From Lingula anatina (taxonomy: Eukaryota > Animalia > Brachiopoda), in NCBI GenBank assembly GCA_051362555.1, contig CM120644.1, positions 8,130,954 to 8,194,953 of the forward strand: DNA of 64,000 nt, given 5' to 3'. Made by a program: the position numbers and the translations under genes. The notes beneath the pieces were generated by a model. It did not search any database. It worked only from the letters and a program-made list of their open reading frames with translations, and had not been told where the DNA came from. Positions 5,628-64,000 of the stretch are shown in pieces (the stretch's first letter is position 1; each line of letters opens with the position of its first letter).

Positions 5628-6506
5628 GAGAAAAAATGACTAATGTTTTGTTTTCTAACATGTAAAGCCTAGAGTGCCTAGATATAATGCAATGTAATTG
5701 CTTGGTTATCTTTATCACTTTATGTTTATAAACTTTCTTCTTCCATATTTTCTAGGTACACATGTAGATCCCAATTGTTACTACTTCTCATGCTTTACGA
5801 TTAATAGAGAAATAATCATAAGGTTCTTCTTATCTTCCAATAAACCTTGTTTTTGGGAAGGAGAATAACCCACATAATGCTTTCACTGGTATGTACAGAA
5901 TATCCTTTACATAGACCAATAAAGATAAGGTGAGTGCTGATCCCTAACATTCAAATATTAATGTTGTAAAAATATTTTTTGAATTGGTGCTCATCCATAA
6001 CATTATGCAAAATATTATCAATGTTACAATTTGATATTCTGTGGGATCATTAGGTACCTCAATTTTCAGAACATGCTGCAAGTACTGATACTCGAAATGT
6101 GTGGGATGATTGTATTTATGTTATCTTACTTTGTTTTTTGTTTTACGAACAAAATTTTTGTCTATGTGAGTGTGTGTCATGTGTATGAATGTGTGATGTA
6201 TGCAAACCTCATAGGTGAGAGCATCCTGATCAAGCAATGTTTAGGGTCAAATGACATGTGGGTTAATGTATGTATGGGGTTGTATGTTTGTGAAGTGATG
6301 CATAATTGGAGCACTACACCAGATATGAATGAATATATTATCATGATATCTGCATGTATAACTGTGATGTGGACTTGCTTACTCTACAAAATATTTTACA
6401 CCGATATAATGAGCCATATATTCCATAGATATACACAATCTATGGATGTCATCTGCGTACTGGATTACTTGAAAGTATTATAATTCACAAAATTGTTATT
6501 TAATCT

Positions 6507-12545: not shown

Positions 12546-15500
12546 TTGTATACGGTCTCACAATACCTAATAATAGGGACACACTAGCCCGGAATTTCAA
12601 GCAGATTTGTGTCGAAATTACTTGTCTTATAAATTAACGCGACTTTGACCTCCATAACTAAAAAATAATTAGTCTTACCTTATCTTATTTCCTTTTTTAT
12701 TTCCTTTACTGTGGTTTCATGTAATCCTTAGTGTAACTTGACTGAAGAAATTCCGCCTTTATGTTCCAATGGCGTGTGACACTGAGACAGGCTCCTCGTA
12801 GTGTCCTCGCTTTAGATTATAGGGTTTCAAGGGTCTATCTTTGTAAGTGAGGCCATCGCATTTTACCTTAATATCTACATGGCGGAACACTGGCAAACAT
12901 CCTCGACTCATTCACCTGATTAATTTTTAATATTCATTTGTACATGAATTCTAACTAGTCTTTTGAATGCATTTATCTGTGCGGTTCATAGATGATAATA
13001 AAATATGCACACATGAAAGGGAACTTTACCAATGTCCTTTTTCTTTCTCTTGGCAGTTTCAAAACAATTCAGTATAGAAAGAGATGAATGCGCGGATTTG
13101 AAATATCTTTTGCAGTGGAGTATTTATGACGGTCTTTCAGCACTATAGTACAGCGTACATACCTTGAGATGTACGTAATACTAGAGATGTGTTTCCTCTC
13201 CCAGCTAGCTGCTGTTATTAAATTCTAATGTTTCAACTCCATTCATGTCCCTTAACAGCTGCGTTTTACGCTTTTCAATTATTTATTGGATGACAAAACC
13301 TGGTAAGCATCACAAGAGAAGACTTAAAACAAAATGCTGTTGTATTTAAGTATAAAAAAAGTTGTCAGTGTTATACAGGTATTAGGTTCACTATCCATGT
13401 CGTGTTCTTTTGAATCAGGTCGACTTAAAGATTGTGTGGGAGTAGCTCTTACTCTTTTTTTATTTGTCATAACCACTTAAACCGATATACCATTCGCAAA
13501 AAGCGTGATTCTATAACCGTAATGGGAATATATAAATTGATGAGACAAAAATTAAATGAATAAATAAATAAATAAATAATGGCCAGTCGTTCAGTATTAT
13601 AGTGGCATACATAACTTACTGTGAGATTAATCCTGCAACTCGTAATCACGCCTTCACTTGTTCTGTACTTAATCTGCATTTTTTTCAGGAATACATCAAA
13701 ATTATGTCCTAGGTAAAAGATTGCATGAATCGAGTATTTTGACACAGAAGAGTGGTAGACATTTTTCATATAATGGCATGCTATTTTGCCAGCTTGTGTT
13801 TACTTAGCACGAAAATTATACATCAAGCACCGCTATATGCGGAAAACTGTAGTCCCGAGATGTTCTGGTAGTCTTGGAGGCAGATAGACAGTCACATTAG
13901 TATTTTTCTGTATATACTAGAACGTTTCACCGGTCCAAAGCCAGCATACATGCTAGATATGTTTAATGTACAAGGGGGTTTTAACCACCATTGCATTATA
14001 TTATTACATCATAATTATAATCGCAACTGCTCTGAAACCTACATTGTGTTAGCGGAGATTCATGCGGCGATAGGTGAGAGAAGTGTACTCTTATAAACCA
14101 CTGTGATATGGTTTATTTATTTAAAAAACGCATCCGTATTAACTTGGTCTGCGGATCACAGCTTTCTGTTTCTTTCTAATCTGGCGTTTAGTAGTGCGTT
14201 TAAGACCATTATTTTCTAACTGACCTATAACAGCAGTTGTACTGCATGATTGGTGAGATAATAGTGCTTGTAGCGTTGGAGTCATTCTGGCGGTCATCGC
14301 ATATAAGGCAGTGGTGTAATGCCAGTGATGCTGTGAGGGAATACTTCGGGAAATTAAAGGCCATTGGTGGATGAAAAACAAACTTTGTTTGAATGAAAGT
14401 ATAAGACACGTGTCTAGCGTATATTGCGTGAAGGAAGCATGCAGTTTGGGAATACCCTTGTCTCCTCTTTCGACTGAATTGTAAACTATGATTTGTATTT
14501 TGTTTGTTTCTGATAGTTGAGCCCACTGCCTATATTATTTAACATCCCTGTTTTTCTCCAAGTCTCGAAGCTCCAAGTTCTTTGCAATTGGTAGTTCAAA
14601 TCATTTAAAAGACACGAGTTACAACACAACAATTTCTTATGCAAGCTAGAGCATTTATTGTAATCTGTCATAATAACAATTACAGCCAAACAAAAGAGAA
14701 AATCAATAAAATCTGAATAAATACAAATGAAAATTACTGACGGAAAGATACTCTCCAAACTGATAGATAAGCTACTAAACAATTATTCAAACCTTCCCCA
14801 CTTTAATAAGTCAATAACATTAAAGAATTTTATACGATATTATTCTGAATAATTATTTAAAAGAAAATCCGAAAAAAAATTGTACCATGTGGTCCATATA
14901 CTTTTCTTCGAGAACGAACGTGCTTATTTATCATGAACAAAAATACTGAAAATAACCAATAATAAAATAATCATTAGTTACCCAATTAATAAATAATAAG
15001 ATAAGGTAATTAACTGAATTTAACTGAAGATAATAAATAAATAAATGATGAAAACCAGCAAATCAAATTAAATGAAATAGGTTGTGGAAAAATTTACCAC
15101 GGGTACCATTTATAGGAAACTACATAAAATACATAAAATGCATGATTTGGGTCTCAAAATATTACATGTACTACGTAAAACCTAGTTGCAGTTGTAATTA
15201 TATCTAGTCTTTGATGTGAAAAAGAATTTGATGCACGCACATGCACACTTGTAAATATCCAAAATTGTCCACTTACACGCAAGTAAATTATACACCCAGT
15301 AGTATATTAAAACTTAGTGGGGAACTCTAAGCCAACGTGTCTAGCAACTGCCCGTTCTAGCAATGCGTTTTCTTTTAGAGCTACCCAGCTTCCAAGACAG
15401 AGACGACGGGCTCCATGTCCTTCTTTTTCCCCAGGTCCATCTCCACTTCTAATACGAAATAAATCAAATTGGAATATGAAATGACTCAAAATTAAATGAA

Positions 15501-18500
15501 AATGTAATTAAAAGTATTCAAGATGAATCCAGACTATCCTTAAAGGGTTAGAAACTCTTATTTTACGGGGGAAATCTGCGATAAAAGGTTTTCTTCCTGG
15601 GGTAAACAGGGTAAACAATTCTAATACTTTCAAATGGTTAATGAATCCCTTCTGAAATTCATAGTTGGTCGATTGTTTTTAGTGTTTATTGTAAAAAATC
15701 TCTTTTGTCACTGTTACGGAGAATAGCCACCTATGAAGGTTCATGTGGTCCATGGCCAGCACAGATTTCAGAAATATTACAATAACCGCCTTTTTGATGG
15801 TCAAATGGAATTTGAATTATATACATTTCTGTTTGTTGCTTACATTGTATTTATTGTGGACATTTGGATCTCATATGAATAGTTGTTATCTCTTTAAGTT
15901 ATCAAATTGATGTAAGCCAAGGTAAAGCCAAGGCGAGTGAAAGTGGATTCGATCGCATATATATGAAATAAAATCAAAGTACATATACATCAATTCACAA
16001 CTTACCCAGAATCTCCAACTTTTAATCTTAAACTTAGTTCTAAGTTGATACCAAGCTTTAACGTTAATCTTCATAGGGTCGTGCCCGTGGTAGAACGAGA
16101 AACAAAGCCCCGGATAGAGCTTCCCCTCTCCTTCAACAAGGTAATTGAGGGTGACGCCGATGTCAATCCCACCGCGGGCCACTGCCTGGAATCAACGTAT
16201 GAAAAATTTGTGGAATCAAATATTGGAATAAATTAACTTGTAGATTAAGAGTATCGCAACTTTACAATCGTTTTGCTCAGATTTCAACAACAACCAGCGG
16301 TCGATATCATGCAGCACGTTTCGCCTGTTTTTATAATTCTAGTCATTTAAATTGACTGAGCACACTTTACTTGCACGTTTATTTCCCCAAACATCTACAA
16401 TATTGCTTATGTTTGGAGAAATAACTGTATTGGCCTCTTTAATATTTTAATGCGTCTGTAAAATAAAAAAAATGTCACTTTTCAAAGTCTGAACCATTTA
16501 ATCGTAATCATGATCAAAATCTTACTCTTAATTATTTTACCATTTACACACATATACATGTTGCAAATACTTACAAGCAAATTAGCTGAGCCTCCACCAG
16601 ATATTCGGGCACTTGCTTTTATAATCATCGTCAGACAGTGGGAGCAGGGATCAGATGACTTAGCACAATAGATTGCCGTGACACGAATGTCCACCCTAGG
16701 GGCCAAGGTAATGGTAACGGAGATTTTAGCGACGTAGATGAAAAAGCTGAACACGTTGATGGATTTAGGTGATGGTTTGTAAACTGGGAAGTTTCTGTTC
16801 ACCGAGCCAGATGTGTCTACGTTCACCACAGTCTTCCCGTAGACTATGAGATAGACCCTTGTTCTAATTCTGCTAGTTTTATAACGATAGACTATTGTGA
16901 TTGCAAGTGTAATCCGTTTGGAGAAAACTTTAAGTTTGGCGATTGACTTGCCGTACGCTTTGCAGTATCTTCGCTTTTTATTTCTACCGGCAAACACACC
17001 AGACTTGATATAGATGTTTGCTTTCGAAGGACCGTAACTGATGTGTGAAAGGCAGTGCTTGTTTTCTGGGTACAGGGAATTATCACTTGAGAACTGGCCT
17101 GAACTTAATAAATCTGAATACCGTGAGCCGTGGGTGCTCCAAGAACGGCAACTTACATGGTTGACACCTCTTTTAGTGCGCGTAGAATTCACCATCTCAT
17201 AAGTCTCAATAAGATTACCAAAGGGCACACCTTTAAGTTGCAGATACTCCTTAATGTCTGAAAATGCGCACTCATATCTTATATCTGCCATAAGAAGTGC
17301 ATTGAGAAGGATTCTGTCTACCTCTGTTTGACCTGCATTGGGCCATGCCTTGTTTTTGGTATCCAGTACCTTTCTATAGGCAAGTTCGCCTTTGATGGTC
17401 ACAACAGCAGCTTCGCGTAATTCACAGGTGGATGTTCGACGAGTCAGCAAATCTACTAGCCATTTCTGAACCGACTAAACGTGAAAGTTTCTTCTCAGAG
17501 CGTGAATGCAACCCATTTCTATCTCTTCCAACTGTCCTTCCTTTTTAGCAATTGCTAACACATCCGGTATTATTCTGTTGTCTCCAAAGTTACCTATAGC
17601 CTCAAGAGCGTCACTGATTTGTACTGTGTTGTTATTTTTGTCGCCTGATTGGAGATGGCGTCGAAGAAGATCCACCAATTCTGACCGGAAGCCAGTGCTG
17701 GTAGTTTCCTTCGAGGCGAGGGAGCCGAGGGCAAGTATGACGTGACTTTGGGATGGATCACCTTGAGAGGACAGCGTTTTCCAGAGTGTCTTGACTGTGG
17801 TTAAGATGTGGTTTGTGGGTTTGGCAATAAAGGACAACTTCTGTACAAGTTCCTGCTTTTGGTCGGCAGCAAGGGGGTGATACTGGACCAAACTGGACAG
17901 TGTCTAAAATAAAGACTTGTGACTTTGTGGTACTTTTTAAGGTAAATTTCCGTATAAAATTCCCCCAAAATGGAATTTTGTCACTTTGTTCAATAGGCTC
18001 TACTGTAAACAAAATCACGATGGTAGATTAGTTCCGCTTTTTTCAGTACACATTTTAAAGGTAAAAGCAGACCTTTGAGGATGGAGGATAGTTAAAACAA
18101 GTACAAAAGCCATTCCAAAGTAATAAAGTTACTATGATACTTAATATTCTCCGCGTTACCTTTTCGGCTTCTTTGCCCCCAGCGGTGATGTAAAGGTCCA
18201 AAATTTCTTTGCAAATTTCCCAATTTGATGAACACTTGGAAACCATCTAAAATGGAAGGATGTCTATAAGCAGAATGTCTCTATACCAAACCCATTAATG
18301 ATTTGTTTAGGTAGAAAATAGATTCACCTTAGGTAAAAACATAGTGAAATCGTCAATCCTTAAAGCAATATTTCAAAATATATAAGTATGATGTTTCACA
18401 GCTATTTAAGCGTTTTCAGAAATAAAAAGGAAAAGGATGACACAGGCAAAAAGCTGACTAGGGGATCAGCTCCATCTTCGGTATGACGCACCCATGGCAA

Positions 18501-18641
18501 ATAGTCTCTTTAATAGGCCACTGTCACTACTTTAAATAATATTTGTGTCTAAATTCAAATACCATCAATGGTGTAAAAATGATATTCTCTGTTGAGCAGG
18601 TTTCTTGATATTGTAAACGAGAGTGTGACATTTTGACCAGT

Positions 18642-19382
18642 CTAGGTTACCACTTAATATGGAATATTATTTTTGGCGAGTAAATTCTTTACAAAATATT
18701 TAATTTCCCTCTAACTATTTTAAATCTAAAACTGAGGTGTCACTCCATGTGTAGCCAGGTGTGTTACCTAATTACCACGTAACTCTTGAAACAATTGATG
18801 CATGTAGTTGCATGTTCTGTGGTCAGAAATGTGAGGGGTGGTCTTTTCGACAATTTCTACCCTTGTATAAAAAGGCATGGATTTGGCCAATCTTTGGAGT
18901 GTGTTTAGAGAAGCAACAAAGGGATCGCTTTGAAACTTAACAGGTACCTTAGTGAAGATATGGTTCGACATCTAAGCAACGCAGCTTACTATGTGATTCT
19001 TGCTCTCAGGGAAAATGGTCAGAAACGGACAGCCATTGCCAGACAATTCAACATTTTTTCAGGAACCGTTAGTAAAGTCCTCCAAAGAATAGCTACAACA
19101 GGGGCACCTACTCCAATACTTTCACCAGGGTGTCCACGTATTACACCAATAAGACAGGATCGCCTTCTCCTTAGAGTGCGTGGTGCTGGTCGTACAAAGA
19201 CAACCAGTGTCCTCAGAAAAGAGTGGCAGAATGTCTTTCAAACGCCCGTTTCAAGGCCCCTCGTGAACAAGAGATTACTGTACCTAATGGCATACTTTTA
19301 TGATGAATCAAGCCAAAAAGAAAATTAATCATCACTCAAAAACAACAATGATAAAAATATTCCATATTAAGTAGCAACCCTG
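18642..19382 (+). mobile_element. Internally deleted Tc1-family transposon in copy A intron 9
   Basis: Inverted ends GGTTACCACTTAATATGGAATATT / AATATTCCATATTAAGTAGCAACC followed by TG-TA. ORF from 18960 encodes only the N-terminal HTH region (AIARQFNI..TVSKVLQR..GCPRIT..QDRLL, GRPR-like linker). Absent from copy B at ~52685. Confidence 0.85.
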
Positions 19383-22012
19383 TATATATGTCAAGTGATA
19401 ACTAAACAAGTAAGAGAAAGATTTTAAAATATTACTGAAGGCAAACCTCTTTTGTAACTTGTATCAGTTGCTTAACCAAGGCCGGCTTGTTGGCGGCTGC
19501 AGAAGTTGCGTTGTTGTGTGCCATCCCGAGTTCATTTTCCAAGGACAGGATTTCGTTCACTTCGTGTAGTGAAAAAAAAAAAAAAATCCGGTCAGTATGT
19601 GAAGGTCCATAAGTTTGACATTGGCGATTAGTGGACTTACAGGTATCCCCTTCTCTCCCTTTTCCGAATTTTCCACATGTGTGCTCTGCACATAATTGTA
19701 ATACATTTATCTACTTCACAGAAACACTAACTCTCAGCACAAGTACATGATAGCGAATGACAGTATCTTTCTCAACCAGAAGCACTGATAAACACGTCTT
19801 CTACGGGCATTTTAATCGATTTTGCTCAGAAACAATCTCTCCAAAAGGATAAATTAACACTATAATACATACATTTTGACGTATCTGTTGGATCTTTCAT
19901 GAAGTTTGTCACAGCTTGACCTAGCTTATCCTCCTCGTCGAACTTTTTCCTCAGAATGGTCCATCTTTGGTACACACCAGACACTGAAATAGGTTAAATA
20001 TAGTGCAGTACACGCCGACTTGTGTAAAAAAAGTTGATACAGGTATTATAAAATGAAAGAAATACTCACTAATTAGAAATTAGTGCACAAATCAGATATG
20101 TTATATCTCATTGCTATTTTGTTCACTATGTATTTTGTAAAAACAAATACCCTAGCTGGTATAAAAACATACTTGTAGAGTAAAGAGCCCATAAAGGTGA
20201 TTTGTACACATTTAGTGCTTAATAAAATTATTATTATTATTATTATCATTATAACTATTATTATTATAGTCTTTCTCAGAACTGTAGTTCCCTTATAACA
20301 TAGGCTAATCAGTAACATATTTTTTATAATAAAAAGAAAGAGCACGGGTAGATCCTACGATGGATAGAAGCCGCTCACTTAGCTTTTAAGTTGCACACCC
20401 TTCTTTCCCTCTCCTCTCGTAAAATGATTTACCGTCAGCATGGAACAATATCAAGTGATTTTCATCGATACATACTAACGTGCTTGCCTACTATCTTATT
20501 TACAGAACGAAGTGGGACTAATTCCTATATACCTGTATCCCTCGATAGTTAACTCCTGGATTCGCCCATATAAAATCTAAGCTGTTATCTTGAGTAAATT
20601 CTCAAAGCTATCGCCTGTAAGACACAGCTGGCGATTTTTTTTTGGAATTTATTTGTCTGTTGGCAAACTTAAAATTTAATGTCAAAAATGTTAACTTCAA
20701 AAATTTATTTTTATTTTGATGAGCATATTACTAGAAGCTGGTACACTTACCCTCATATTCTCCGATCAAGGATCGTTTCTGGAATTGAGCGTTAACTGCC
20801 GCTTCCATTCTTTGAACGCCTTTAACGGAACGCTTTACGTGCTTACGCAAGGTCAACGTGAAGGTCACGTTAGAGGTCAAATATGCCCCAAGATCAATAT
20901 TACCCCCTTCCTCAGGGGTGATAGACTCATCCTGAAGGAATAAATGAACGATGCTATAAAGTATAATAATTCATGATTACTTAGAGCCGTTATTATTCGT
21001 ATTCAGTTTTGTACCATTCCGTCTATATATTACAGTTATATGTAGTCCGCTAATACAACGCACATTTCCACCTTGTTATGCAAAATGAATATAAAATTTT
21101 TCGTACACTGTATTAATTTATTGTCCATGATCTCCATTTTACCTGACGGGCGATCTTAAACCAATCAGTAATCGATTGTCCCAAAATATCATGTAGATGA
21201 TATGAAAGGCTTCCAAAATTGTCATTTCACATAACTATAAAGCCAATATGTCATACTTCGTTATACCTATTGTGCGGCTATCAATCAAATCATATCTACC
21301 TGATCTTCGGGTTTGTCAAACACCTGTAAGTGTCCGGAGACGCTGGTCAGTATACCTCCACTAACACGCTGGACTTCATCTGTCTCGATGTCCACTTCGT
21401 CGGTGTCCAAGTCAGTATTATCCTCCGCATAGATGTCCTTGGAGGAAAAATGCTTCTTAATTTCTATTTCCCCAAACTGCAGCTCTGTTGACCTAGGATA
21501 AAAGAAGTGATATTGGTAATGTTATAGTTATAATAACAATATGTTATAAACTGAATGGCATCAGCAACACAAAGGAAACAAAGTGTGATAAACAGAAATC
21601 ATATATATGAATTTGAAAGGCTATTTTACATTTGATTATTATAAAAAAGCATGGAAAGGACAACGCAAAAATTAATAATAAATAAATAAATAAACATTAG
21701 GTAAATCAACCTATAAAGATGTAATGAGATTTTTCTTGTCAGTTGCATTGTTATTTTTTGTTTGCCTTCATCATGCACATTGCACACATATATAGGACAA
21801 TTTATTAATAATGTACTTACATGTAGCGTGAGTTGTGTTTCCCCATGACGTCCGTCTCTATGACATTTTCTTTGTCACGCACCAAATTCGTTTGAAGTAC
21901 CGATAAAATGGAGCGCTTAAAATTCATGACATCTGTATTTCCTAAAACAAATTAGGGGAGCTTAGTGCAGGTTCAGATGTATCAGATGTATTAATAAAGG
22001 GAAACTCACTTA

Positions 22013-22267
22013 AGCTTCGTTCACATGCAATGTCTATTTTCTAAATTCTATTTTCTATTCGCGCTATCTTATGATCACGGTCTGTGCCCTGAATATCCCG
22101 CGGCGTAATTACTGGCAGCGTGAGCCAGTTACTATAAGTTAGTATAAGTAACTGGCTCGCGCTGCCAGTAATTACGCGGCGGGATATTCAGGGCACAGAC
22201 CGTGATCATAAGATAGCGCGAATAGAAAATAGAATTTAGAAAATAGACATTGCACGTGAACGAAGCC
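22013..22267. mobile_element. Near-perfect palindromic MITE (~255 bp), PIF/Harbinger-like
   Basis: Two ~120-bp arms are reverse complements; TWA flanks; same family as 26839-27095; absent from the copy B intron at ~55700. Confidence 0.85.
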
Positions 22268-22359
22268 TAAGTATGCTTTTAAACGAAGTGACATAGCCAT
22301 CTAATGACTATCAGATTTACAGCGCATGCTTTATTTTTGTGAGCATGTGCGTGTGTCTA

Positions 22360-22601
22360 TGGGACCACTCCCACATATATTTGGATCGATCTATCTCCCT
22401 GGGGAGTTTCACGAAATTGCTGTCAACTTGACCGCCTTAAATATCCGTCACGCCTAGTAAAACTGTTAGGAGGTAATTATCTTTGCCTCCTAGGTGATTC
22501 GATAGGCGTGACAGACAGAAAACCGGTAATTTGATTGCAATAAGGGAGACTCCCCAGAGAGTTGGGTCGATCCAGATGGATCGATCTAAGTATGGGAACC
22601 C
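22360..22601. mobile_element. Degenerate inverted-repeat element (MITE-like) in copy A intron 4
   Basis: Imperfect arms TGGATCGATCTATCTCCCTGGGGAGTTTC / GAGACTCCCCAGAGAGTTGGGTCGATCCA and inner GTCACGCCTA / TAGGCGTGAC; GTCTATG on both sides; absent from copy B. Confidence 0.55.
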
Positions 22602-23279
22602 AGTCTATGTGTGATTATGGTGAAAGGGCTATCTGAGAGCAAAGGCACATGCTCCCACCCCAATATTTCCGAGAGAATTTTATTATTATTTTAAGACAAG
22701 TTTTATTCAGGTTGAGGTATGTGGCTTATGGAAAATCTAAGAAAAAAGTTGTCCCTGTTTGCCGTCTTACCTAAATCTTTCTTGGTAAACCTAGCCTCGG
22801 CAATAGTTCCGTTCCCCAGTTGAACAAACCAGGTAGGCTGGTCATACAGGTCGTCAGCAGACAGGGGAGCCTCGGACTGGGAGGTCGTGCTATTGAAATG
22901 GACATGAATATGTATATACAGTATATATCCCCACGCATACAACGAACTTAATGATTTTTTTTTTTGTAAACTACATATTATTTTGACTTTTGTTGATTGA
23001 AACGCTCCTCACCCATTTCCCTTTATCACTTGCACAAAAACATTGCGCATAAACATGAGGAAGGACGATGCGTTGTTATCAAGGTAGTTTCCAAAGCCAT
23101 CTGAAAAACAAGCAGTGCGTCAACATCCAAAACCGATTTTACTTTCAAGTGCTACACCTTGAAATGTTTTCCAACAACAGTGACCTTAAGCAAAAGTATG
23201 TGCTTAGTTTACCTGTGCATGAGGTAAGAAAGCTATTGACTTATTACCGTTAACAAGTATCTTAAAAAGAAAATTACGT

Positions 23280-23286
23280 AAAAAAA

Positions 23287-23373
<87 letters not shown>
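23280..23373. repeat. Poly(A) + (TA)n microsatellite, representative of many simple repeats in the window
   Basis: Similar tracts at ~346-408, 12507-12542 (GA), 25966-26065, 32256-32412, 35127-35177, 53400-53447, 56083-56133, 57123-57170, 60518-60699 and 63119-63167. Confidence 0.95.
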
Positions 23374-23375
<2 letters not shown>

Positions 23376-23428
23376 CGGCATGTATACATGCATCGACTCG
23401 GCGGTCGTTTTATCAAATAATATTACAA

Positions 23429-23873
23429 CTATTATGGTTCAGAGACCTGGGCACTAAATGCCTCCATGGAACACAAGCTACAAGTAGCTCAGAGAAAGAT
23501 GGAAAGAATTATGTTGAACATCAATCCAAGAGAGCGGAAAACGAATGTATGGTTACGTGAACAGACCAAAGTTAAGGACGCACTGCTCACAGTTAAAGAA
23601 ATGAAATGGAGGTGGGCAGGACATGTCAAAAGAATGAAGGACAATAGGTGGACAATCAGGCTTACAGAATGGACCCCAAGGTATGGACAAAGAAAAAGAG
23701 GAAGGCCGGTCAAACGATGGAGGGATGAATTAGATGACTACTGGAAGTCTTGGAAGAAGAAACCTTGGCCAAACTGGAAATCTGAGGCTCAGGATAGGAA
23801 ACAATGGAAAAAGCATGCTGAGGCCTTTGTCCAACAGTGGAACACTATAGGCTCTAAATGATGATGACGATGA
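23429..23873 (+). mobile_element. 5'-truncated RTE-clade LINE fragment in copy A intron 2
   Basis: Encodes YGSETW..QRKMERIML..KWRWAGHVKRM..W.P..GQRKRGRPVKRW (RTE ORF C-terminus) and ends in a (GAT/ATG)n tail. Empty site in copy B at ~56500. Confidence 0.85.
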
Positions 23874-26018
23874 AGGGAGTGGTGAAAAAGATATATCGAT
23901 AAAGAACTAGTTGAATAAGAAAAATGAATACAGAAAAAAACAACAAATTGAAACACACATATATACCTCCAATATACTCCACATCTACATCAGCGGAGAT
24001 GTGAAATATTTCCTCTGCCGGACCAAATAGTTTGGCCTCGCTTTCATAGTGGTAATGGAGAGTTGTTCCCTGGAAACGCAACAACGTTAGCGTCATGTCT
24101 TTTTTCATATGGATTTACTCATTACTTTTGCCAGGGATTAGAGTCCAAAGATGATTGCAATGTGTGGTAAAGAGGGGTAAAATGTTATCACCCAGGTGCA
24201 GAGGTTGTACAGACTTGAATGTATAGGATCTGGCTGTGTTAGGCATTGATGCTGAATGACTGATAACATTTACTAAATCTAAATCAATATATCATTGACA
24301 TTTATATTATATATTAAATTTATATGACAGAAGAAATGTTACTAAATGGTTTTTTTCACACTGGTACGTTAAAAAATCAAGTTGTATTAGCTAAGCTCGT
24401 CCAAAAATGACAACTAACATTACAAGGATAAATAGAAACAAAACAAAACGAACAAATTATAATAATAAATACATAAATAAATAAATAATTAGTGTGCGGT
24501 TCAGTGGACTATTAACGTACTTACATATAAATCAGCCTTAGGCAATGCAGATGAGTCTTTCGATACGTACTCCTCCTCGTTCTTGCTTAAGGTAGACCTC
24601 GCCAGGGAGACAACGAGGCCCAGGTAAATAACATAAAACCTCATTTTCATGTTAAACACGTATCTTGGGAAGTAAACAATGTGGGGTATTAACTGAAAGG
24701 GAATGCTTAATATACTAGAATATAATGCACCACATTATTACGAGGACAATACAAAACGCACACAAGTTATTATTTAACAAATATAAAATTCCTTAACCTT
24801 GCTTTTAACAAAAGAAACTGTGCTACATCTTCCACTTCATGATGTCTATCAATAATTGCTATAAATACGAAGATTTAGTTCACATAGTAGAAAACATTGG
24901 TACATTTCTATAAATGTAATTTTGGTGTCATTTATCTATGTATTTTACTATTACTATTATCATAATTATTGCTGCTATTACCTTATCTATGTACATTTTC
25001 ACCAGCTCAGTCTGGTGCAGAAAGTATGAATAAAGTATAAAGCATAAAGCATATTTAACATTTGTCCTATAAATGTTTTGAATGCTTTATGTTTTAAATC
25101 TTTTCTGTTTTGTGGATTTTTTTTTGATATTGTGCATTAATTTAATAAGATGGAGACATACACCTTATATCTTAATTAATTCACACACGAAGTCGTATAA
25201 GGACATTTGTTTGTCCTTATCTGATATACATGCACGAATTCTAATAAGAGAGCAGCTCTAATGTTAAAATACATAATGTTTGATAGTGAAATGCCTGAAT
25301 ACCTAAATACCTAAGAGAAAACCTTTTTGTTGTTTTTTAAACAAATACCCAGGTTCTGGCCTACGATGGTTCACAATATTACATTATTTTCTTATTTCAA
25401 AGACAAAATATAAATTAAATAAATAAATAAATAAATAAATAAAAATGTCAAAAATTGTGCTGTAAATCGTTTATTCTGTGGGGTATCTTGTACATTTTTC
25501 ATGAACAATTTAAATGTCAAGAATTACATCCAATTAAAATAATAATAAAATTTAATCATTATTGAAATAATTTAATGATAATAACGTTATTGGGGCAACG
25601 ATGACGGTTTTTTAGCTTTATTTACTAACTTTGCTCGACTGTACTCTTAATATCAATACTGATGTTCTAATACTTTATCTCTTACCTTCAAATTAACTTA
25701 TTTTCTTTGCAACACCATTTCGGTGATCATAAGAATCTTGTATTCTTATTTGTTAATCACCTATTCACATTTCTTTGTTAAGCAATATCTGGTAGCATGT
25801 GTTTATGTCCGTTACAATTATATATGAAAAAAATGTCTATTACATCATACTTTAAAAATCCCCAAAGTAGAGTTTGCACCTGTTATCCGCGTCATGGGAA
25901 AGTACATTTTGCTTGAAGAAGTAAAAAATCAGCCCAAACTGCGACTTTGACATTTTCCATTCTCGCAAAAAAAAAAAAAAAATAAATAAATAAAAAAATA
26001 AAAAATAAAATAAAATAA

Positions 26019-29785: not shown

Positions 29786-29951
29786 TATGTACACGTAAAG
29801 CTTTGTAAAGTCCCTTTTGTCACACATCATAGATAATAAATTTTGTCTTGAATGAGTTATAATAATGGTTTGTTATAATGATGATAATAATAATAATAAT
29901 TACGACATAAATCTGAAATTGTATATTTCCTTTTGACCTTTATCATATTAG

Positions 29952-30070
29952 AAGTGGAGATGGACCTGGGGAAGCAGGTAGACGTGGAGTCCACGTGGAG
30001 CCCATTGTCATTGTCTTGGAGCCTGAGGAGATGTGGAAGGAAACTCATTGGAAGAGCGGGCAGGTGCTAG
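29952..30070 (+). pseudogene. Inverted orphan terminal exon of a fourth family member
   Basis: AG acceptor, then KWRWTWGSR*TWSP..LSWSL..LIGRAGRC*. Length 119 nt equals the canonical 108-nt exon plus an 11-nt tandem duplication. The sequence after the stop (GCATGTTTGTTAAATG) matches copy C. Confidence 0.85.
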
Positions 30071-30121
30071 GCATGTTTGTTAAATGGATTACAAAAAGAA
30101 AATTGATTAAATACGAATATA

Positions 30122-45300: not shown

Positions 45301-45840
45301 GATGGACAGACCTGTCAGCCCGTTCTCTACAACTTCACCCAAGCAAACTACCTACTGATACTTGAGTTCGAACCCCTTGGCTGGTCGCCCTCCGATCCTT
45401 TCCAATGCCAGACCCTCCGACGAGAAATCGAGGTCAAGCCCTCTGGCACCGTGGCCCACCCCTCGCTGCAGTTGTGCGAAATCATGACCGACCCGGTTAC
45501 TGGCAACGTCACAGTTATCCTTAAAACACCGGTGACTTTCATCGAAGTTCTGGCAGATTATGGGCAGGGTTTGAAAGAATTGGCGTGTATCCGGTCTTTC
45601 TATGAGGATGAGCTGAAGTCCAAAGAAATATCTCTACCAGAAGGAAGACTCCGCGTGCGCCGTACTTCACAGGACACAGAGCACTGCCCGCGCCGAGCTG
45701 ATGAGGATGACGGCAAGGTAGATGGTGATCGCAAACCAGAAAAACGACCAGCGCAAAAGAAAAGCCGTGCCTTGGTTATTGCCAGTGAAATCTTGTTGAT
45801 CATGGCGATGTTCTTACTCTGTCGCGTGGTAATCTGGTAA
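36305..45840 (+). CDS. Secreted or membrane-anchored Cys-rich protein with a somatomedin-B-like motif (~733 aa); resembles an invertebrate adhesion/Mth-like GPCR ectodomain without the 7TM
   Basis: Phase-compatible exons: 36305-36383 (MTKFGDGWWFLSVLAAMLVIGG, signal-like); 42633-44063 (Thr/Ser/acidic stalk, CYCDALCHVFNDCC, WMVDQCP..C..PVTD..YKNRFCALCHG, second YKNYHCLLC); 44791-44900 (FSFSAFL); 45259-45840 (CPPGF..TCQP, hydrophobic C-terminus). The exon 1 link is inferred across a 6.2-kb intron. Confidence 0.8.
38459..39030 (+). mobile_element. Non-autonomous Helentron/HINE (DINE-1-like) style element
   Basis: Begins TTACCTCCGCGAAGG..GGTTATGTATTCACC, then a (GTCT/GTTT)n microsatellite and two diverged core units, and ends in a degenerate complement CCCTGGCGTGGA..CTGAG..TTT. 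Confidence 0.5.
40358..42586. mobile_element. ~2.2-kb non-autonomous TIR element in intron 1 of the SMB-like gene
   Basis: Inverted ends CGATAATTCTTCGATCTTTTCGAT / ATCGAAAAGATCGAAGAATTACCG, TA on the right flank, ATCGA-rich subtermini; no transposase ORF seen. Confidence 0.65.
44319..44488. mobile_element. Short inverted-repeat element (MITE-like)
   Basis: CGGTGTAACG ... CGTTACACCG ends, an internal CCTGTTACACGG and a TAACCCTAACC tract. Confidence 0.45.
44910..44993 (+). repeat. Four 21-bp tandem units just inside an intron 5' end
   Basis: Consensus GTNCCTGTWTCTWGGCAACAG x4. Confidence 0.85.
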
Positions 45841-49455: not shown

Positions 49456-52400
49456 TTAGCAACTGCCCGTTCTAGCAATGCGTTTTCTTTTAGAGCTTCC
49501 AAGCTTCCAAGACAGAGACGACGGACTCCATGTCCTTCTTTTCCCCCAGGTCCATCTCCACTTCTGATATGAAATAAATCAGATTGGAATGCGAAATGAC
49601 TCAAAGTTAAATGAAAATGTAATAAAATTATACAAAATGAATCAAGACAAGGATTAGAAACTCTTCATTTTTTTTTTTTTGGGGGGGGGGGGGGGATCAG
49701 ATTTTTCTGAGATAGACATCGATTTTCCCATACTTTCAAATGGTCAATAAATCCGTTCTGAAATTCAAATTTGGTCGATTGTTTTTAGTGTGTGTGTGTG
49801 TATGTGTGTGTGTGTGTTTGTAAAAATCCCTTTAGTCATACTATTAAGGAGGACAGGTACATCTTAAGGTTCATGTCGTCCGATGGCCAGCACAGATTTC
49901 AGACATACTGCAATGACCGCCTTTTTGATGGTCAAATGGAATTAAAATTTCATATATTTCTGTGTGTTGTTTACATTGTATTCATTGTGGACATTTGAAT
50001 CTCATATGAATAGTTGTTATCTCTTTAAGTTATCAGATTGATGTAAACCAAGGTAAAGCCAATGTGAGTGGAATTGGATTTGAATCTCACATGTATGAAA
50101 TAAAATCAAAGTACATATACATCAATTCACAACTTACCCAGAATCTCCAACTTTTAATCTTAAACTTAGTTCTAAGTTGATACCAAGCTTCAACGTTAAT
50201 CTTCATGGGGTCGTAGCCGTGGTAGAACGAGAAACAAAGCCCCGGATAGAGCTTCCCCTCTCCTTCAACCAGGTAATTGAGGGTGACGCCGATGTCAATC
50301 CCACCACGGGCCAGTGCCTGGAATCAACTTTTTGGAATCAAATATTGGAAAAAATACACTTGTAGATTTAGAATATCACGACTTTACAATCAACGTTTTG
50401 CTCAGATTTCAACAACAACCAGCGGTCGATGTCATGCTACACGATTCGCCTGTTTTTATAATTCTAGTCAATTAAAATGATTGAGCAATCTTTACTTGCA
50501 CGTTTATTTCCCCAAACATCTACAATATTGCAGATGTTTGGAGAAATAACTGTATTGGCCTCTTTAAAATTTTAATGCATCTGTAAAATGAACAAATATC
50601 ACTTTTCGAAGTCTTATTCATCATAAACCATAATAATCATAATCGAAATCTCAATTATTTTATCATTTACACATATACATATACATGTTGCATATACTTA
50701 CAAGCAAATTAGCTGAGCCTCCACCAGAAATTCGGGCACTTGCTTTCAGAGTCATCGTCAGACAGTGAGAGCAGGGATCATATGACCGATCACAAAAGCC
50801 TGCCTTGATACGAAAGTCCACCCTAGGAGCCAAGGTAATGGTAACGGAGATTTTAGCGACATAGATGAAAAAGCTGAACACGTTGATGGATTTAGGTGAC
50901 GGTTTGTAAACTGGGTAGTTTCTGTTCACTGAGCCAGATGTGTCTACGTTCACCACAGTCTTTCCGTAGACTTTGAGATAGACCCTTGTTCTAGTTTTGC
51001 TAGTTTTATAACGATAGGCTATTGCGGTTGCAAGTGTAAACCGTTTGGAGAAAACTTTGAGTTTGGCAAATGATTTGCCGTACACTTTACAGTATCTTCG
51101 TCTTCTATTTCTACCAGCAAAGACACCAGACTTGATGTAGATATTTGCTTTCGATGGGCCGTAACTGATGTGGGATAGACAGTGCTTGTTTTCTGGGTAT
51201 TTGTTGTTATCGCTTGAGAACTTCGATGAACTTAACAATTCTGAATACCGTGAGCCGTAGGTACCCCAGGAACTGCAACTTACATGGTTAACTCCTCTTT
51301 TAGTGCGCGTGGAATTCACCACCTCATAAGTCTCAATAAGATTACCAAAGGGCACACCTTTAAGTTGAAGATACTCCCTAATATCTGAAAATGCACACTC
51401 ATATCTTACATCTGCCATAAGAAGTGCATTGAGAAGGATTCTGTCTACCTCTGTTCGACCTGAATTGGGCCATGCCTTGTTTTTGGTGTCCAGTACCTTT
51501 CTGTAAGCAAGTTCGCCTTTGATGGTGACCACAGCAGCTTCACGTAATTCACAGCTAGATGTTGGACGAGTCAACAGATTTACTAGCCATTGCTGAACCG
51601 ACTCAACGTGGAAGTTTCTTCTCAGAGCGTGGATACAGCCTATCTCTATCTCTTCCGTCTGTCCTTTTTTAGCAACTGCCAATACAACCGGCGTTAGTCT
51701 GTTGTCTCCAAAGTTACCAATAGCCTCAAGAGCGTCACTGATTTGCTCCGTGTTGTTATTTTTGTCGCCTGATTGAAGATGGCGTCGAAGAAGATCCACC
51801 AATTCTGACCGGAAACCAGAGCTGGTAGTTTCCTTCGAGGCGAGGGAGCCGAGAGTAAGTATGACGTGACTCTGGGATGGATCGCCTTGAGAGGACAGCG
51901 TGTTCCATAGTGTCTTGACTGTGGTTAAGATGTGGTTTGTGGGTTTGGCAATAAAGGACAACTTCTGAACCAGTTCCTGCTTTTGGTCGGCAGAAAGGGG
52001 GTGATACTGGACCAAACTGGATAGTGTCTAAAATAAAGACTTGTGACTTTGTGATGTTTTTTAAGGTAAATTTCCATAAAAGGTAAAAGCAGACCTTTGA
52101 CGATGGAGGATAGTTAAAACAAGTATAAAAGCCATTCCAAAGTAATACATTTACATCAATAATTAGTATTCTATGCATTACCTTTTCGGCTTCTTTGCCG
52201 CCAGCGGTGATGTAAAGGTCCAAAATTTCTTTGCAAATTTCCCAATTTGTTGAACACCTGGCAACCATCTGAAATGGAGAGATGTATTTGTTAGCCGGTT
52301 TTACAATCAGCGCAGGTACATGCAGAATGTCTATATACCTAACCCATTAATGACTTTTTTAGTTATAAAATACATTCCGCGCTAGTCAAATCATCAATCC

Positions 52401-53397
52401 TGAAAGCAATTTATCAAAAATATATATACATGTTTCACAGCTTTTAAACGTTTTCAGAAACAGAAAGGAAAATGATGACACAAAAAATTGCTGACCAAGG
52501 GATCAGCTTCATGTTCTGATGGTTCGGTAAAACGCACCCATGACAAGTAGTCTCTTTATTAGACCACTGACGCTAATTTAAATAATAATTGAGTCTTAAT
52601 TAAAATACCATCAGTGGTGTAAAAATGATCTCTGTTGAGCAGGTTTCTTGATATTGAAGACAATAGTCTGATATTTTGATCAGGCTATAACTATGTATGC
52701 CAAGTGATAACTAAACATGCTACATAAAGATTTTAAAATATTACTGAAGGCAAACCTCTTTTGTAGCTTGTATCAGTTGCTTAACCAGGGCAGGTTTGTT
52801 GGCGGCTGCAGAGGTTGCGTTGTTGTGTGGCATCCCAAGTTCATTTTCCAGCGACAGAATTTCATTCACTTCGTGTACTGAAAAAAAAAAAGCCGGTCAG
52901 TATGTGAACGTCCATAAGTTTGAGAGTGGCGATAAGTGGACTTCGCTCCCCCCTGTCCGATTTTTTTTTGTCTGCCTCAAAGAAACACTTACTCTCGATC
53001 AGCAAAAGTACATGATAATCAGAATTATTGATATAAGTCTTCTACGGTCATTTTAATTAATTCTATTCAGAAACAATCTCTCCACAAGGATAAATTAACA
53101 CAATAATACATACATTTTGACGGATCTGTTGGATCCTTCATAAAGTTCGTCACAGCTTGACCTAGCTTATCCTCCTCATCGAACTTTCTCCTCAGAATGG
53201 TCCATCTTTGGTACACAGCAGACACTGAAATAGGTAATAAAAACTGCAGTACACGGCAATTTGAGACAAAAGGATGATACAGGTGTTGTTAAAATATAAG
53301 AAATAATGTCTCTAATAACCTATTAATTAGGAACCAATTCACAAATCCGGTACGTTATTTCTCATGCCCGTTTTGTTAACTATGTATTCTGTGTAAT

Positions 53398-53448
<51 letters not shown>

Positions 53449-56080
53449 TGTTAAAGTAGAGAGGCTATAAAATGTTAATTGTACACATCTTGAGCCTCGG
53501 TCACAACCGGCCGTATGGGATCTTACGGCCTGTTAGCGTCCACATTTTGCGCAGACTCTCACGTGCCGCGCAAGTCCTTCTTGCGAAATTTAGAGTTTGC
53601 AGACAGCCCGTAAGCATGTACGGAGGATGTTGGAAATGTCCAAAAGATTCTATGAATGATCTGTGAACAACTAGCTCGCAAACGTAACTTGCTCCAGTCG
53701 CAGTCGTGCGTGGTCCAGGACGCACGTCGTAAACAATGAAAGAGCAAGTGGCCTTTAAGTGTTGAGTACGACGCACGCCCTCACATCCAACGAACATAGT
53801 TGAAAGTACGGCGGAAGTGCGTCGCCCCCACGCCAGGAGTATAAAAGGCGTGTTTACAATGCACGCTCGTGTCTCGACAAATAACGTCGCTTGTGCCTCG
53901 TGTACAACATTTCACAAATTTCGAACTTTGCTAAATTTAGCTTCTAATATGCCTCCAAAAGGCAAGGGAAAGAAGCTTAGAGAGCAGAAAAAAGGGAGGA
54001 GGAAAAAGAGAGAAGGGCCCTTGCGGCCGGTTGTGACCGAGGCTTAAGGTGCTTGCCTACTATCTAATATCTACAGAACGATGTGGTGCTGTTTCTTTTA
54101 TCATTTTACCTACGTTTACAAACTCCTGGATTCGCCCATGTAAAATCTAAGCTGTTATTGTGAATATACCCTCATAGATACCGAATGTAACACACGATTT
54201 TTAAAATCGATTATTTGTCTTTTGGCGAACTTAACTTTTCATTATATCAAAATATGACAAATAATCTTCATTAGTATTGAATTATCTAATCAACCATTTA
54301 TTATTTTTTTGATGAGCACATTACCACAAGCTACTACACTCACCCTTGTCATACTGTCCGACCAGGGATCTTTTATGAAATCGAGCGCTGACTGCCGCTT
54401 CCATTCTTTGGACTCCTTCAACGGAACGCTTAACGTGCTTACGCAAGGTCAACGTGAAGGTAACGTTAGATGTCAAATATGCCCCAAGATCAATATTGCC
54501 CCCTTCCTCAGGGCTGATAGACTCATCCTGGAGGAATAAATACAAGAATGCTATAAAGTATTATAATCAATGTATACTTATAGGCTTTTACAGCCGATAT
54601 TGTTTGTATTCCGTTTTGTATCATTCCGTATATTTATTACAATTTTATGCAGTCCGCTAATAAAGCGCACATATCCACCTTGCTATGCATGATAAATATT
54701 CAATTTTTCATACAATGTATTAAATTATTTTCCATGATCTCCATTCTACTTGGCGGGCGTTCTTATAATAAACCAATCGGTAATCGATTGTCCCGGAATT
54801 CAGATTATCATATAATTGATATGAAAGGCTTCAAAAATGGCGGAAGTACCAGTTGATGTAGTAAGCGGATTTTTCTCACTTGTCACTTCACATATAACTT
54901 TAAATCAAATATGTCATACTTCGTTATACCTATTGTGCGGCTATTAATCAAAGCATATCTACCTGATCTTCGGGTTTGTCAAACACCTGTACATGTCCGG
55001 AGACACTGGTCAGTATATTTCCACTAACACGCTGGACTTCATCTGTCTCGATGTCCACTTCGTCGGTGTCCAAGTCAGTATTATCCTCCTCATAGATGTC
55101 CTTGGAGGAAAAATGCTTCTTAATTTCTATTTCCCCAAACTGCAGCTCTGTTGACCTAGGATGAAAGGATTAATAATGGTAATGTGATGGTCATAATTAC
55201 AATATGTTATAAACTGAATGACATCAACAACACAAAGAAAACAAAGTGTGATAAGCCGAAATAATATATATGAATTTGAAAGGCAGTCATATTTTATATT
55301 TGGTTATTAAAAAAGGCTGAATAGAACATCGCAAAAAATTAATAATAAAAAAAATAAATAAATATATTAACTAATAAACATAAGGTAAATAAACTTATAA
55401 AGATGTCATTAAATATTAACTTTTTTCTTGTCAGTTTCTTTGTTTTTATTTGCTTTTCCTTCATCATGCACATTGTGCACTTAGGACAACTAAATACATG
55501 TAATTCACTCACATGTAGCGTGAGTTGTGTTTCCCCATGACGTCCGTCTCTATGACATTTTCTTTGTCACGCACCAAATTCGTTTGAAGTACCGATAAAA
55601 TGGAGCGCTTAAAATTCATGACATTTGTATTTCCTAAAACAAATTAGGGGAGTTCAGTGCAGGTTTAGATGTACCAGATGTATAAATAAAGGTAAATTGA
55701 CTTGCTTTTAACCTTTAAACGATGCTTTTAAACGATGTGACATGGTCATCCAATTACTATAAGATTTACAGCGCATGCTATATTTTTGTGAGAATGTGAT
55801 TATGGAGAAAACGTCTATCAGAGAGCAAAGGCACGCGCACCCACCCCAATATTTTTAAAATTTGAAGACAAGTTTTATTTAGGTTGAGGTATGCGTCGCA
55901 TGGAAAAGCTAAGAAAAAATTGTCCCCGTTTGTCGTCTTACCTAAATCTTTCTTGGTAAACCTAGCCTCGGCAATAGTTCCGTTCCCCAGTTGAACAAAC
56001 CAGGTAGGCTGGTCATACAGGTCGTCAGCAGACAGAGGAGCCTCGGACTGGGAGGTCGTGCTATTGGAATGGATACAAGA

Positions 56081-56136
<56 letters not shown>

Positions 56137-57126
56137 CCACGCATACAGCGAAATAAATGAGGAGCGTTGTAATTTACATATTATTTTAATTACTGTAATA
56201 CACCACGTCACGTACAGTAAAATGGTCCTCACCCATTTCCCTTAATCACCTGCACAAACACATTGCGCATAAACATGAGAAAGGACGATGCATTGTTATC
56301 AAGGTAGTTTCCAAAGCCATCTGGAAAACAAGTAGTGCATCAACATACAAAACCAATTTTACTTTCACGTGCTACTGCATGGAATGTCTTCCAATAACAT
56401 TGACCTTAAACAAATGTATGTGATTAGTTTACCTGTGCATGAGGTAAGAAACCATGTACATGCATCAACTCGAAGATCGTTTTATCAAACAATGTTACAA
56501 AGACTGAGGGAGTGGTAAAAAACATTATCGATAAAGAACTAGTTGAATAAGAAAAACAAATACAGATAAAAAACAACAAATTGAAACACATATATACCTC
56601 CAATATACTCGATATCTACATCAGCGGAGATGTGAAAAGTCTCCTCTGCCGGACCAAACAGTTTTGCATCACTTTCATATCGGTAGTGTAGAGTTGTTCC
56701 CTGGAAACGCAGCAACGTTAGCGTTACTTATTTTTTGCATGTTGGTTTACTTATTACACTGTCTAGGGTTTAAATTTCTATAAAGTCTAAAGATGATTGA
56801 AACCTGTGGTAAGGAGGGGTAAAACGTTACTCACTAAGGTTCAGATGGTGCATAGACTTGAATGTAGGATCTAGTTGTGTTAGGAATATCTTACTGGTAT
56901 TGATTCTGAATGATTGATAACATCTACTATTACTGATAAACGAATATATACCAGCGACATGTATAAGAGTATAAATATATATATATATGATACAAGGAAT
57001 GTTACTTAATGGTTTTGTCATCCCGGCATGTTAAAAGTTGTGTTAGCCAAGCTCATCCAAAAGAGACAACTGACTTAACAAGAATTAATAAAAACAATCA
57101 AATAAACAAACAAACAGACAGGCAAA

Positions 57127-57170
<44 letters not shown>

Positions 57171-57324
57171 AGTATGTTGTTCACGGGACTATTAGTACTC
57201 TTACATGTAAATCAGCCTGAGGCAGTGTGGACGAATCTTTCGACACGTAGTCCTCCTCGCCCTTGCATAAGGTTGACAGCACCAGAGCGACAACAAGGCA
57301 CAGGTTAATAACAATAAACCTCAT
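49456..57324 (-). CDS. Copy B, intact: secreted ~953-aa protein with a vitellogenin/MTP-like N-terminal lipid-transfer module, an RTKR furin site and a basic beta-rich C-domain with a Trp-rich tail
   Basis: 13 GT-AG exons: 57324-57205, 56700-56598, 56320-56233, 56060-55942, 55633-55513, 55155-54963, 54527-54344, 53224-53114, 52877-52756, 52268-52182, 52027-50702, 50317-50138, 49563-49456 (2862 nt, open). Signal-like MRFIVINLCLVVALVLS. LLTP-like motifs LHYRYES, PTWFVQLGNGTI, NFKRSILSVLQ, ETDVMG, LTLGSLA, LEAIGNFG, IHALR. Confidence 0.88.
53493..54044 (+). mobile_element. PIF/Harbinger-like deletion derivative in copy B intron 7
   Basis: TIR AGCCTCGGTCACAACCGGCCG / CGGCCGGTTGTGACCGAGGCT, TAA on the right flank. 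CpG-rich interior with TATAAAA and an ORF stub MPPKGKGKK. Absent from copy A at ~20476. Confidence 0.75.
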
Positions 57325-62966: not shown

Positions 62967-63118
62967 CTAGCAACTGCCCGCTTTACCAATAAGGTGTCTT
63001 CTAGAGCTTCCAAGGCTCCAAGACAGCGACGACGGACTCCACGTATTCCTGTTTCCCCAGGCCCACCCCTGATATGAAAAACGTCATAATGCAATAAACA
63101 TTTTAATATTTATAACAG

Positions 63119-63168
<50 letters not shown>

Positions 63169-64000
63169 CAAAAAATAAAGCATGATGAACCTGACATTAG
63201 CTAAAAGCATTTATATTAATTTAAGTCTAATTGAATCAAATGTCATATTAAAATACGCCGATTCACAACTTACCCAGGATCTCCAGCCACTAACCACGAA
63301 CGATCGTATTTGATACCAAGCTTGTATGTCAATCCTCATGGGGTCATGACCGTGGTAAAACGAGAAACAAATCCCAGGATAGAGCTTCCCCTCTCCTTCA
63401 ACCAGGTAATTGAGGGTGATGCCGATGTCAATTCCACCACGAACCAGTGACTGAAAATTATGTTTCACATTTATGGTTGCTATATTTAGAGTACATATCA
63501 TGGCTTTGACAAAATCGTTATTGATACAACCAGAATTAACAAAATACAGCAACCAGCGATCAATTGTATACAGAACAACACACAATTGTTAATTGGTATC
63601 CCCAATATATAAATTACTTTACAAATCTACAAAGGGTACAGTTTTAATATTTGTAAATGTTTCAGTGATATATTTCTCTCTCTCTAACAGACAGTTCAGT
63701 AAATTAACTTTAATCTTTTTTCTCTTTCTCTCTTTCGCTGTGTTCGTATAACATGTATACTTACAGCCAAATTAGCTGAAGCACCACCAGAAATGCGGAC
63801 ACTTGCTTTAAGGGTCATCGTCAAACAGTGAGAACAAGGATTGTTTGTACGAGGACAAAACCCTGCTCTGACACTAAAGTCCAAACTTGGGGCCAAGGAA
63901 ACGGTGAAGGAGATATGGCCGACATATATCCAAATCCGGTACAAGGTGATGGTTATTGGGGATGGATTGTAAACGGGAAAAGTCTTTTCAAGTGGACCGG
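62967..64000 (-). CDS. Copy C (divergent paralog), last three exons only
   Basis: Exons >64000-63765, 63450-63274 and 63068-62967, open and in phase: ..GFCPRTNNPCSHCLTMTLKAS.. / SLVRGGIDIGITLNYLVEGEGKLYPG..W / GWAWGNRNTWSPSSLSWSLGSSRRHLIGKAGSC*. Confidence 0.85.

Follow-up and report, generated by a model that had tools for sequence, protein, structure and literature searches.

Gene B, located in a 64,000-nucleotide stretch of DNA of the brachiopod Lingula anatina (GenBank assembly GCA_051362555.1, contig CM120644.1, forward-strand positions 8,130,954 to 8,194,953; hereafter the window), codes for a 953-amino-acid (aa) protein that belongs, by its Vitellogenin_N match and by a predicted fold comprising an N-sheet barrel, a helical domain and C/A sheets, to the superfamily of large lipid transfer proteins (LLTPs). 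It is probably a secreted lipid carrier of the size of MTP, cut by a convertase late in the secretory pathway, the chains of which stay bound to each other and the cationic outer face of which docks on anionic surfaces in Lingula. Furin would cut it at the RTKR motif into chains of ca. 72 and 33 kDa, which would likely remain together as one lipid-carrying particle; apoLp-II and apoLp-I also remain in one particle. The hydrophobic faces of the sheets would line the lipid cavity, and the Lys/Arg-rich outer face together with a Trp-rich hairpin would dock the protein on acidic membranes, microbial envelopes or sulfated matrix, thereby serving lipid loading or unloading. By the cut, the hold of the helical domain on the sheets would be loosened, in a maturation comparable to that of apolipophorin II/I. 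The large lipid transfer (LLT) fold itself is known; what is unusual is a family that ranges from protists to animals and has a furin-type motif in front of the sheets in most of its animal members.

All 12 introns of gene B have GT-AG borders and the exons join into a single open frame, confirming the gene extent, the product length, the RTKR position and the 293-aa C-terminal part (the tail) given by the original prediction (Table 1). The nearest database proteins to its large exon are Lingula anatina models (63–90% identity), and the whole product is 90.8% identical, end to end over 954 columns, to the RefSeq model P0001, a paralog used as its stand-in in full-length folding. No reads spanning the splice junctions were found in the searched part (6–25%) of four of the nine same-species RNA runs, which gave 1–64 reads each, mostly from intronic repeats, and do not bear on expression. 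The proposed signal peptide is likely, the N-terminus being the most hydrophobic stretch (19-residue Kyte-Doolittle value of 2.39, with no later window above 1.73). The last residues of the chain are GSC, and a KDEL-type signal is missing. Pfam Vitellogenin_N (PF01347) scores above the cut-off in P0001–P0005 (E 1e-11 to 7e-17) and in residues 417–660 of the gene B product, while the same Pfam scan of these proteins found neither VWD nor DUF1081, in line with the vitellogenin/MTP-like N-terminal part (N-part) without VWD that had been expected; the stop codon follows residue 953. The charge distribution is also as predicted: the part preceding the tail has a pI of 5.4 and an acidic patch (net charge −16 in residues 205–257), and the tail, with a pI of 10.3 and 8 Cys, contains 53 Lys/Arg and 12 Asp/Glu (about 50 and 12 by the earlier count). 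The net charge amounts to +41 in the tail and −24 in the barrel, and the helical domain is neutral. Additional furin-type motifs lie within the tail of gene B and P0001 (RNRRRR, residues 722–727, window 51098–51114); they are absent from P0003–P0005.

The AF2 model of full-length P0001, built from 93 sequences (pLDDT 87.7, pTM 0.86), comprises a barrel (42–281), helices (284–639), a loop predicted to be disordered (650–658, pLDDT <50) which leads into RTKR, and sheets (663–951). The top 11 Foldseek matches of this model are MTP, lipovitellin, vitellogenin and apoB, with MTP first (E 2.6e-28); the alignment to MTP spans 727 residues, from 32–953 of the model to 22–882 of MTP (VIA Z 26.9, rmsd 9.3, 12% identity), and lipovitellin is tied with it (Z 26.1). 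An AlphaFold model of the tail alone (pLDDT 92.8) has only two Foldseek matches at E ≤ 0.001, both MTP chains, followed by MTP 8eoj and, in fourth place, lipovitellin. Its superposition on MTP 574–878 covers 227 of the 293 residues (rmsd 4.6) and is the longest among the 50 matches listed. Since the whole chain is predicted to fold like MTP and the tail alone best matches the last 300 residues of MTP, the tail likely represents the protein's own lipid-binding C/A sheets. The original prediction had suggested a separate effector carried by a repurposed lipid module, a view at odds with this superposition on the MTP sheets, which it had itself named first among the observations that would speak against it.

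The predicted strands of the tail have two distinct registers, one with 66 of 94 residues hydrophobic and 7 Lys/Arg, the other with 29 Lys/Arg among 89, and a conserved Trp is found near the tail end. The A and C sheets of LLTPs have been described as forming the lipid cavity (PMC12214520; PMC7444587); in the tail, the first register would face that cavity and the basic residues would point outward. In sponge, spider and chytrid relatives, the tail is likewise preceded by Vitellogenin_N or HEAT-like helices. A PDB sequence search with the large exon of gene B gave no match, PDB profile searches yielded mostly HEAT/alphaRep repeats but also lipovitellin (E 4e-6), and a viral fold library contained no match at E ≤ 0.001. 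No known pore-forming fold (aerolysin, MACPF/CDC or hemolysin type) matched the whole tail domain among the matches listed, in which a partial match to complement C5b8 was present (Z 5.2, rmsd 10.3, 104 residues). Identity of the tail with the wreath domain of the sponge aggregation factor was rejected, the latter being reported as vWFD-like (PMC11670116).

A search of 1.84 billion representatives with a profile of five Lingula tails detected 95 proteins (E ≤ 0.001); P0050 was excluded from the family, as it did not match the rebuilt tail profile. Among 30 members looked up, those with an organism name come from Lingula, Owenia, Priapulus, Tachypleus, Uloborus, Dinothrombium, Brevipalpus, Ephydatia, Oscarella, four chytrid genera, Willaertia, Andalucia and Anaeramoeba, so that the family ranges over sponges, an annelid, a priapulid, chelicerates, chytrids, Discoba and a metamonad. 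No Pfam model covers the tail in a scan of the family members, and word-index homolog searches returned Lingula proteins only (5, 2 and 7 matches). Four clades emerge from a quick tree that includes 85 of the 98 tails (SH-aLRT support only, midpoint root): one containing bilaterians, a large one containing Ephydatia, one of chytrids and one of Discoba/metamonad. Their names rest on few named rows (a single one in the sponge-containing clade), and the tree is compatible with vertical descent. Tandem copies occur in both Lingula and Ephydatia. The Priapulus member P0032 (1631 aa) carries about 700 extra residues with a C-terminal chitin-binding CBM_14 domain.

The basic site lies, as had been proposed, exactly at the junction of the domains, in the predicted disordered loop, and it is conserved in the family: R-x-K/R-R is present in the 40-residue junction window of 43 of 76 evaluable members, more often than chance would give, as compared with 22 of 999 other windows (37/70 vs. 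20/879 when Lingula is left out; 22 fragments were not evaluable). The search profile starts after the site, hence the members were not selected for the motif, though the rows of a clade are related and these counts are not independent. The furin motif at the helix/sheet junction is found in 15 of 16 bilaterian-clade rows, 25 of 36 of the sponge-containing clade, 0 of 8 chytrid and 0 of 11 Discoba/metamonad rows, while KR/RR at the same place occurs in 33/36, 8/8 and 3/11 (near background) of the latter three clades, respectively. Furin and Kex2 are late-Golgi convertases, and the distribution over the clades is compatible with furin as the cutting enzyme in animals and a Kex2-type one in fungi. 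The barrel/helix junction also displays KR/RR in 14 of 23 full-length rows (132 of 744 windows elsewhere), and RxK/RR in 4 of the 23.

In tails from outside Lingula the median net charge is +1.8 per 100 residues, with no net positive charge (neutral or acidic) in 28 of 69 and a value of at least +10 in 3 of 69. Within Lingula the tails range from +19 to +43 net at a constant acidity of the N-part (most acidic 25-residue window, −9 to −10); those of P0003 and P0004 (+19 and +20) have half the charge of the gene B tail with an equally strong acidic patch. The strong positive charge, on which the original prediction drew, is thus a trait of the lineage and not of the family.

About nine Lingula gene models belong to the family, comprising copies A, B and C of the window (C corresponding to P0003), P0001, P0002, P0004, P0005, and the partial models P0006 and P0119. 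Copies B and A and P0001 are 83–90% identical to P0002–P0004 in the barrel and helices and 67–74% in the tail (67–76% over the recent paralogs), with the lowest identity among the Lingula paralogs at residues 721–840. This fast change could result from diversifying selection on the tail or from gene conversion in the N-part. The identity of copy A to P0001 decreases from 100% in the barrel through 94% in the helices to 85% in the tail, a mosaic which suggests gene conversion among copies. Copy A does have the predicted RTKR (17180-17169), but an in-frame TAG upstream of it (17477-17475) and an AC in place of AG as the exon 9 acceptor indicate that it is probably a pseudogene. Its introns contain fragments absent from copy B, which we take to be derived from a retroelement (23421-23861, plus strand) and a Tc1 transposase (18909-19328, plus strand). 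P0002 (RefSeq LOC106164620), in which the N-terminus of an amiloride-sensitive channel (Pfam ASC, E 8e-40) is joined to the family sequence from about residue 185, is probably a gene-model fusion. The paralog accessions were not found in the biomineral proteome supplement of PMC13425148, which uses transcript ids.

Several observations weigh against tail sheets of the ordinary lipid-binding kind that stay bound after the cut. The match of the tail alone to MTP is modest (TM 0.40, Z 6.2–6.6, 5–8% identity), and its partial matches to unrelated sheets reach Z 7.7–8.3; the weight therefore lies on the coverage of the whole domain and on its position within the full-length match. Pfam MTP_lip_bd is not detected at E ≤ 1 in P0001–P0005, nor does it appear among the best 25 of 35 Pfam families for 56 family members. 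RTKR stands exactly at the domain boundary and would permit release of the tail, which in recent paralogs diverges faster than the N-part, and the net charges of the two parts are anticorrelated (rho −0.58, n = 17, p 0.014, uncorrected for kinship; rho −0.41, p 0.13 without P0001 and P0008). The last three points also favour a pro-effector derived from a lipid transfer protein, in which a cut by furin would set loose the amphipathic sheets of the protein itself, for them to bind and disrupt anionic microbial membranes, the acidic barrel and helices acting as a shielding pro-domain. This explanation, which we consider unlikely, can draw further on the presence of the site at the boundary in most animal rows, the opposite charges of tail and barrel, the amphipathic strands with the conserved Trp, the tandem copies in Lingula and Ephydatia, and bacterial proteins in which the N-module occurs but the tail does not. 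It has to contend with a tail that appears to be the ordinary third domain of the fold, with a furin motif retained in relatives having neutral or acidic tails, with the undiminished acidic patch of P0003 and P0004 beside their less basic tails, and with a dN/dS between copies A and B of 0.29 in the tail (0.15–0.18 in other regions), a weak test because copy A is broken. What stands of the pro-effector originally predicted is the conserved site, the multi-copy genes and the faster divergence of the tail; its reading of the tail and of the charge does not agree with the MTP-like sheets and the lineage-specific charge. Similarly doubtful is an evolutionary version: an ancient eukaryotic MTP-like family would have gained its convertase switch among opisthokonts, and furin would free the lipid-binding sheets, in Lingula, Owenia and certain members of the sponge clade, to act as a cationic defence protein with a Trp tip that attacks membranes, the lipid-transfer fold thereby becoming its own pro-effector.

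A role in storage, in yolk or in matrix, as an abundant secreted lipoprotein that eggs, mucus or the organic matrix of the shell would take up, with the cationic face binding phosphate or glycosaminoglycans and with little lipid shuttling, would account for the many copies, the possible cuts at two domain junctions and the fold shared with vitellogenin. Such a role is rendered rather improbable by the length of about 950 aa without VWD and by the relatives in chytrids and protists, which have neither eggs nor shell; moreover, the main text of the Lingula genome paper (PMC4595640), in a term search, did not contain vitellogenin. That MTP is the best structural match and of similar length would suit a divergent MTP paralog resident in the endoplasmic reticulum and loading lipid onto other lipoproteins with PDI, its basic motif never being cut. 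That is the least probable of the explanations and a very improbable one: animals show strong conservation of the motif and chytrids have it as KR/RR, as fits the late-Golgi convertase of each lineage, MTP_lip_bd is not matched, and no KDEL-type signal ends the chain. The processed, secreted lipid carrier thus remains the preferred reading.

Among known LLTPs, the MTP large subunit (PDB 6I7S, 8EOJ) resembles the gene B product in its barrel, helical domain and two sheets, predicted here in the same order, in its size of about 900 aa and in the lack of VWD; the gene B product differs in its 12% identity, the missing MTP_lip_bd, the conserved convertase motif before the sheets and its multiple copies in Lingula. 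It is not filed as MTP because there is no MTP_lip_bd match, nor as vitellogenin or apolipophorin because VWD is absent. Insect apolipophorin II/I and crustacean apolipocrustacein are likewise secreted LLTPs, reported to undergo cleavage within the LLT module near residue 700, at RX(R/K)R, giving an N-chain of 74–80 kDa (ca. 72 kDa here), but they continue through DUF1081 and VWD, while the gene B product ends 293 aa beyond its site; in them the cut falls between motifs N19 and N20, and the gene B site is comparable in its motif (PMC1783640). Vitellogenin/lipovitellin (1LSH, 9ENR, 9ENS, including the VWD-less fish type-C vitellogenin) shares the lipid-binding module (Z 22.9–26.1), and proteolytic processing is described as common among vitellogenins (PMC12214520); the gene B product has a smaller A-sheet region and neither VWD nor CTCK. 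In bee vitellogenin the helical surface is cationic, whereas the gene B product has cationic sheets and a neutral helical domain.

Bacterial relatives of the N-part were also found. In three genomes, proteins of 682–697 aa (L009:6088-8136, L010:7174-9258, L011:5915-8008) comprise the Vitellogenin_N/HEAT module without the sheet domain (family-profile E 2e-23 to 8e-18) and are encoded directly downstream of LamG/PA14 proteins of about 2000 aa in all three; similar Atlas clusters are commonest in Myxococcota. Vitellogenin_N was present in 4 of 401 genomes of one phylum, with two profile matches, both in the helical part. A tail encoded by a separate bacterial gene, suggested by Atlas look-alikes (0.89–0.91), was rejected, as nothing in five regions, none from Myxococcota, matched the tail (best E 0.35). 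P0025 had no match in a metagenome scan, and a match in one genome contig (L001) was discarded as due to chance, since it overlies a short ribosomal-protein-like open reading frame (ORF), presumably that of ribosomal protein L20.

Table 1. Positions in the window of gene B, its predicted domains and motifs, and the related copies
Feature	Position	Strand	Remarks
Gene B, whole gene	49456..57324	−	13 exons, 953 aa
Gene B, exons 1–7	57324-57205, 56700-56598, 56320-56233, 56060-55942, 55633-55513, 55155-54963, 54527-54344	−	
Gene B, exons 8–13	53224-53114, 52877-52756, 52268-52182, 52027-50702, 50317-50138, 49563-49456	−	
Likely signal peptide, ca. residues 1–22	57259..57324	−	Hydrophobicity scan; putative cleavage point
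N-terminal beta-barrel (N-sheet), residues 41–281	54429..56700	−	AF2 model of P0001; net charge ca. −24
Main acidic patch, residues 207–223	55038..55088	−	Within barrel domain; sequence, AF2 model
Second acidic loop, ca. residues 246–257			Across exons 6–7
KR, residues 281–282	54426..54431	−	Barrel/helix junction; possible second convertase site
Alpha-helical domain, residues 284–638	51362..54422	−	Vitellogenin_N match; Pfam, AF2 model
RTKR, residues 657–660	51296..51307	−	Furin consensus; at the end of the low-confidence loop between last helix and first strand
C-terminal 293 aa	49459..51295	−	Two predicted amphipathic beta-sheets like the MTP lipid-binding domain; one cationic face; Trp-rich hairpin near the end
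Copy A	15341..24644	−	Same 13 exons; in duplicated block, ca. 12.5–29.5 kb vs. 47–61.6 kb
Copy C, last three exons	62967..64000	−	Gene continues beyond the window; corresponds to P0003
Stray decayed last-exon copy	29943..30079	+	Opposite orientation

Apart from the family copies, the window contains two long ORFs of 328 and 1241 aa (4641-10229, plus strand), which we take to be ORF1 and the endonuclease/reverse-transcriptase ORF2 of an intact LINE retrotransposon, and minus-strand exons (2321-3652) presumably coding for a calcium-binding EGF domain and an Ig domain. The protein encoded by large exons at 42617-45840 (plus strand) is rich in Cys, has a hydrophobic C-terminus and matches Somatomedin B weakly (E 0.04).

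No paper evidently describing the family was found in the full-text literature searched, a scope without most subscription papers. The LLTP phylogenies by Smolenaars, Hayward and Wu may include some of its members. Vitellogenin homologs reported from sponges (PMC7743902) may or may not belong to the same family. Since chytrids, Discoba and a metamonad have all three domains of the MTP type in one protein of the family, this architecture likely predates animals, and the family is a candidate outgroup when tracing how MTP, vitellogenin and apoB arose. Since the processing motif follows the lineage (furin type in animals, KR/RR in chytrids, the protist clade without a furin motif), the effect of cutting the LLT module is directly testable. 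If it is true that the cut frees a membrane-active sheet domain, the family would represent a new class of invertebrate defence protein.

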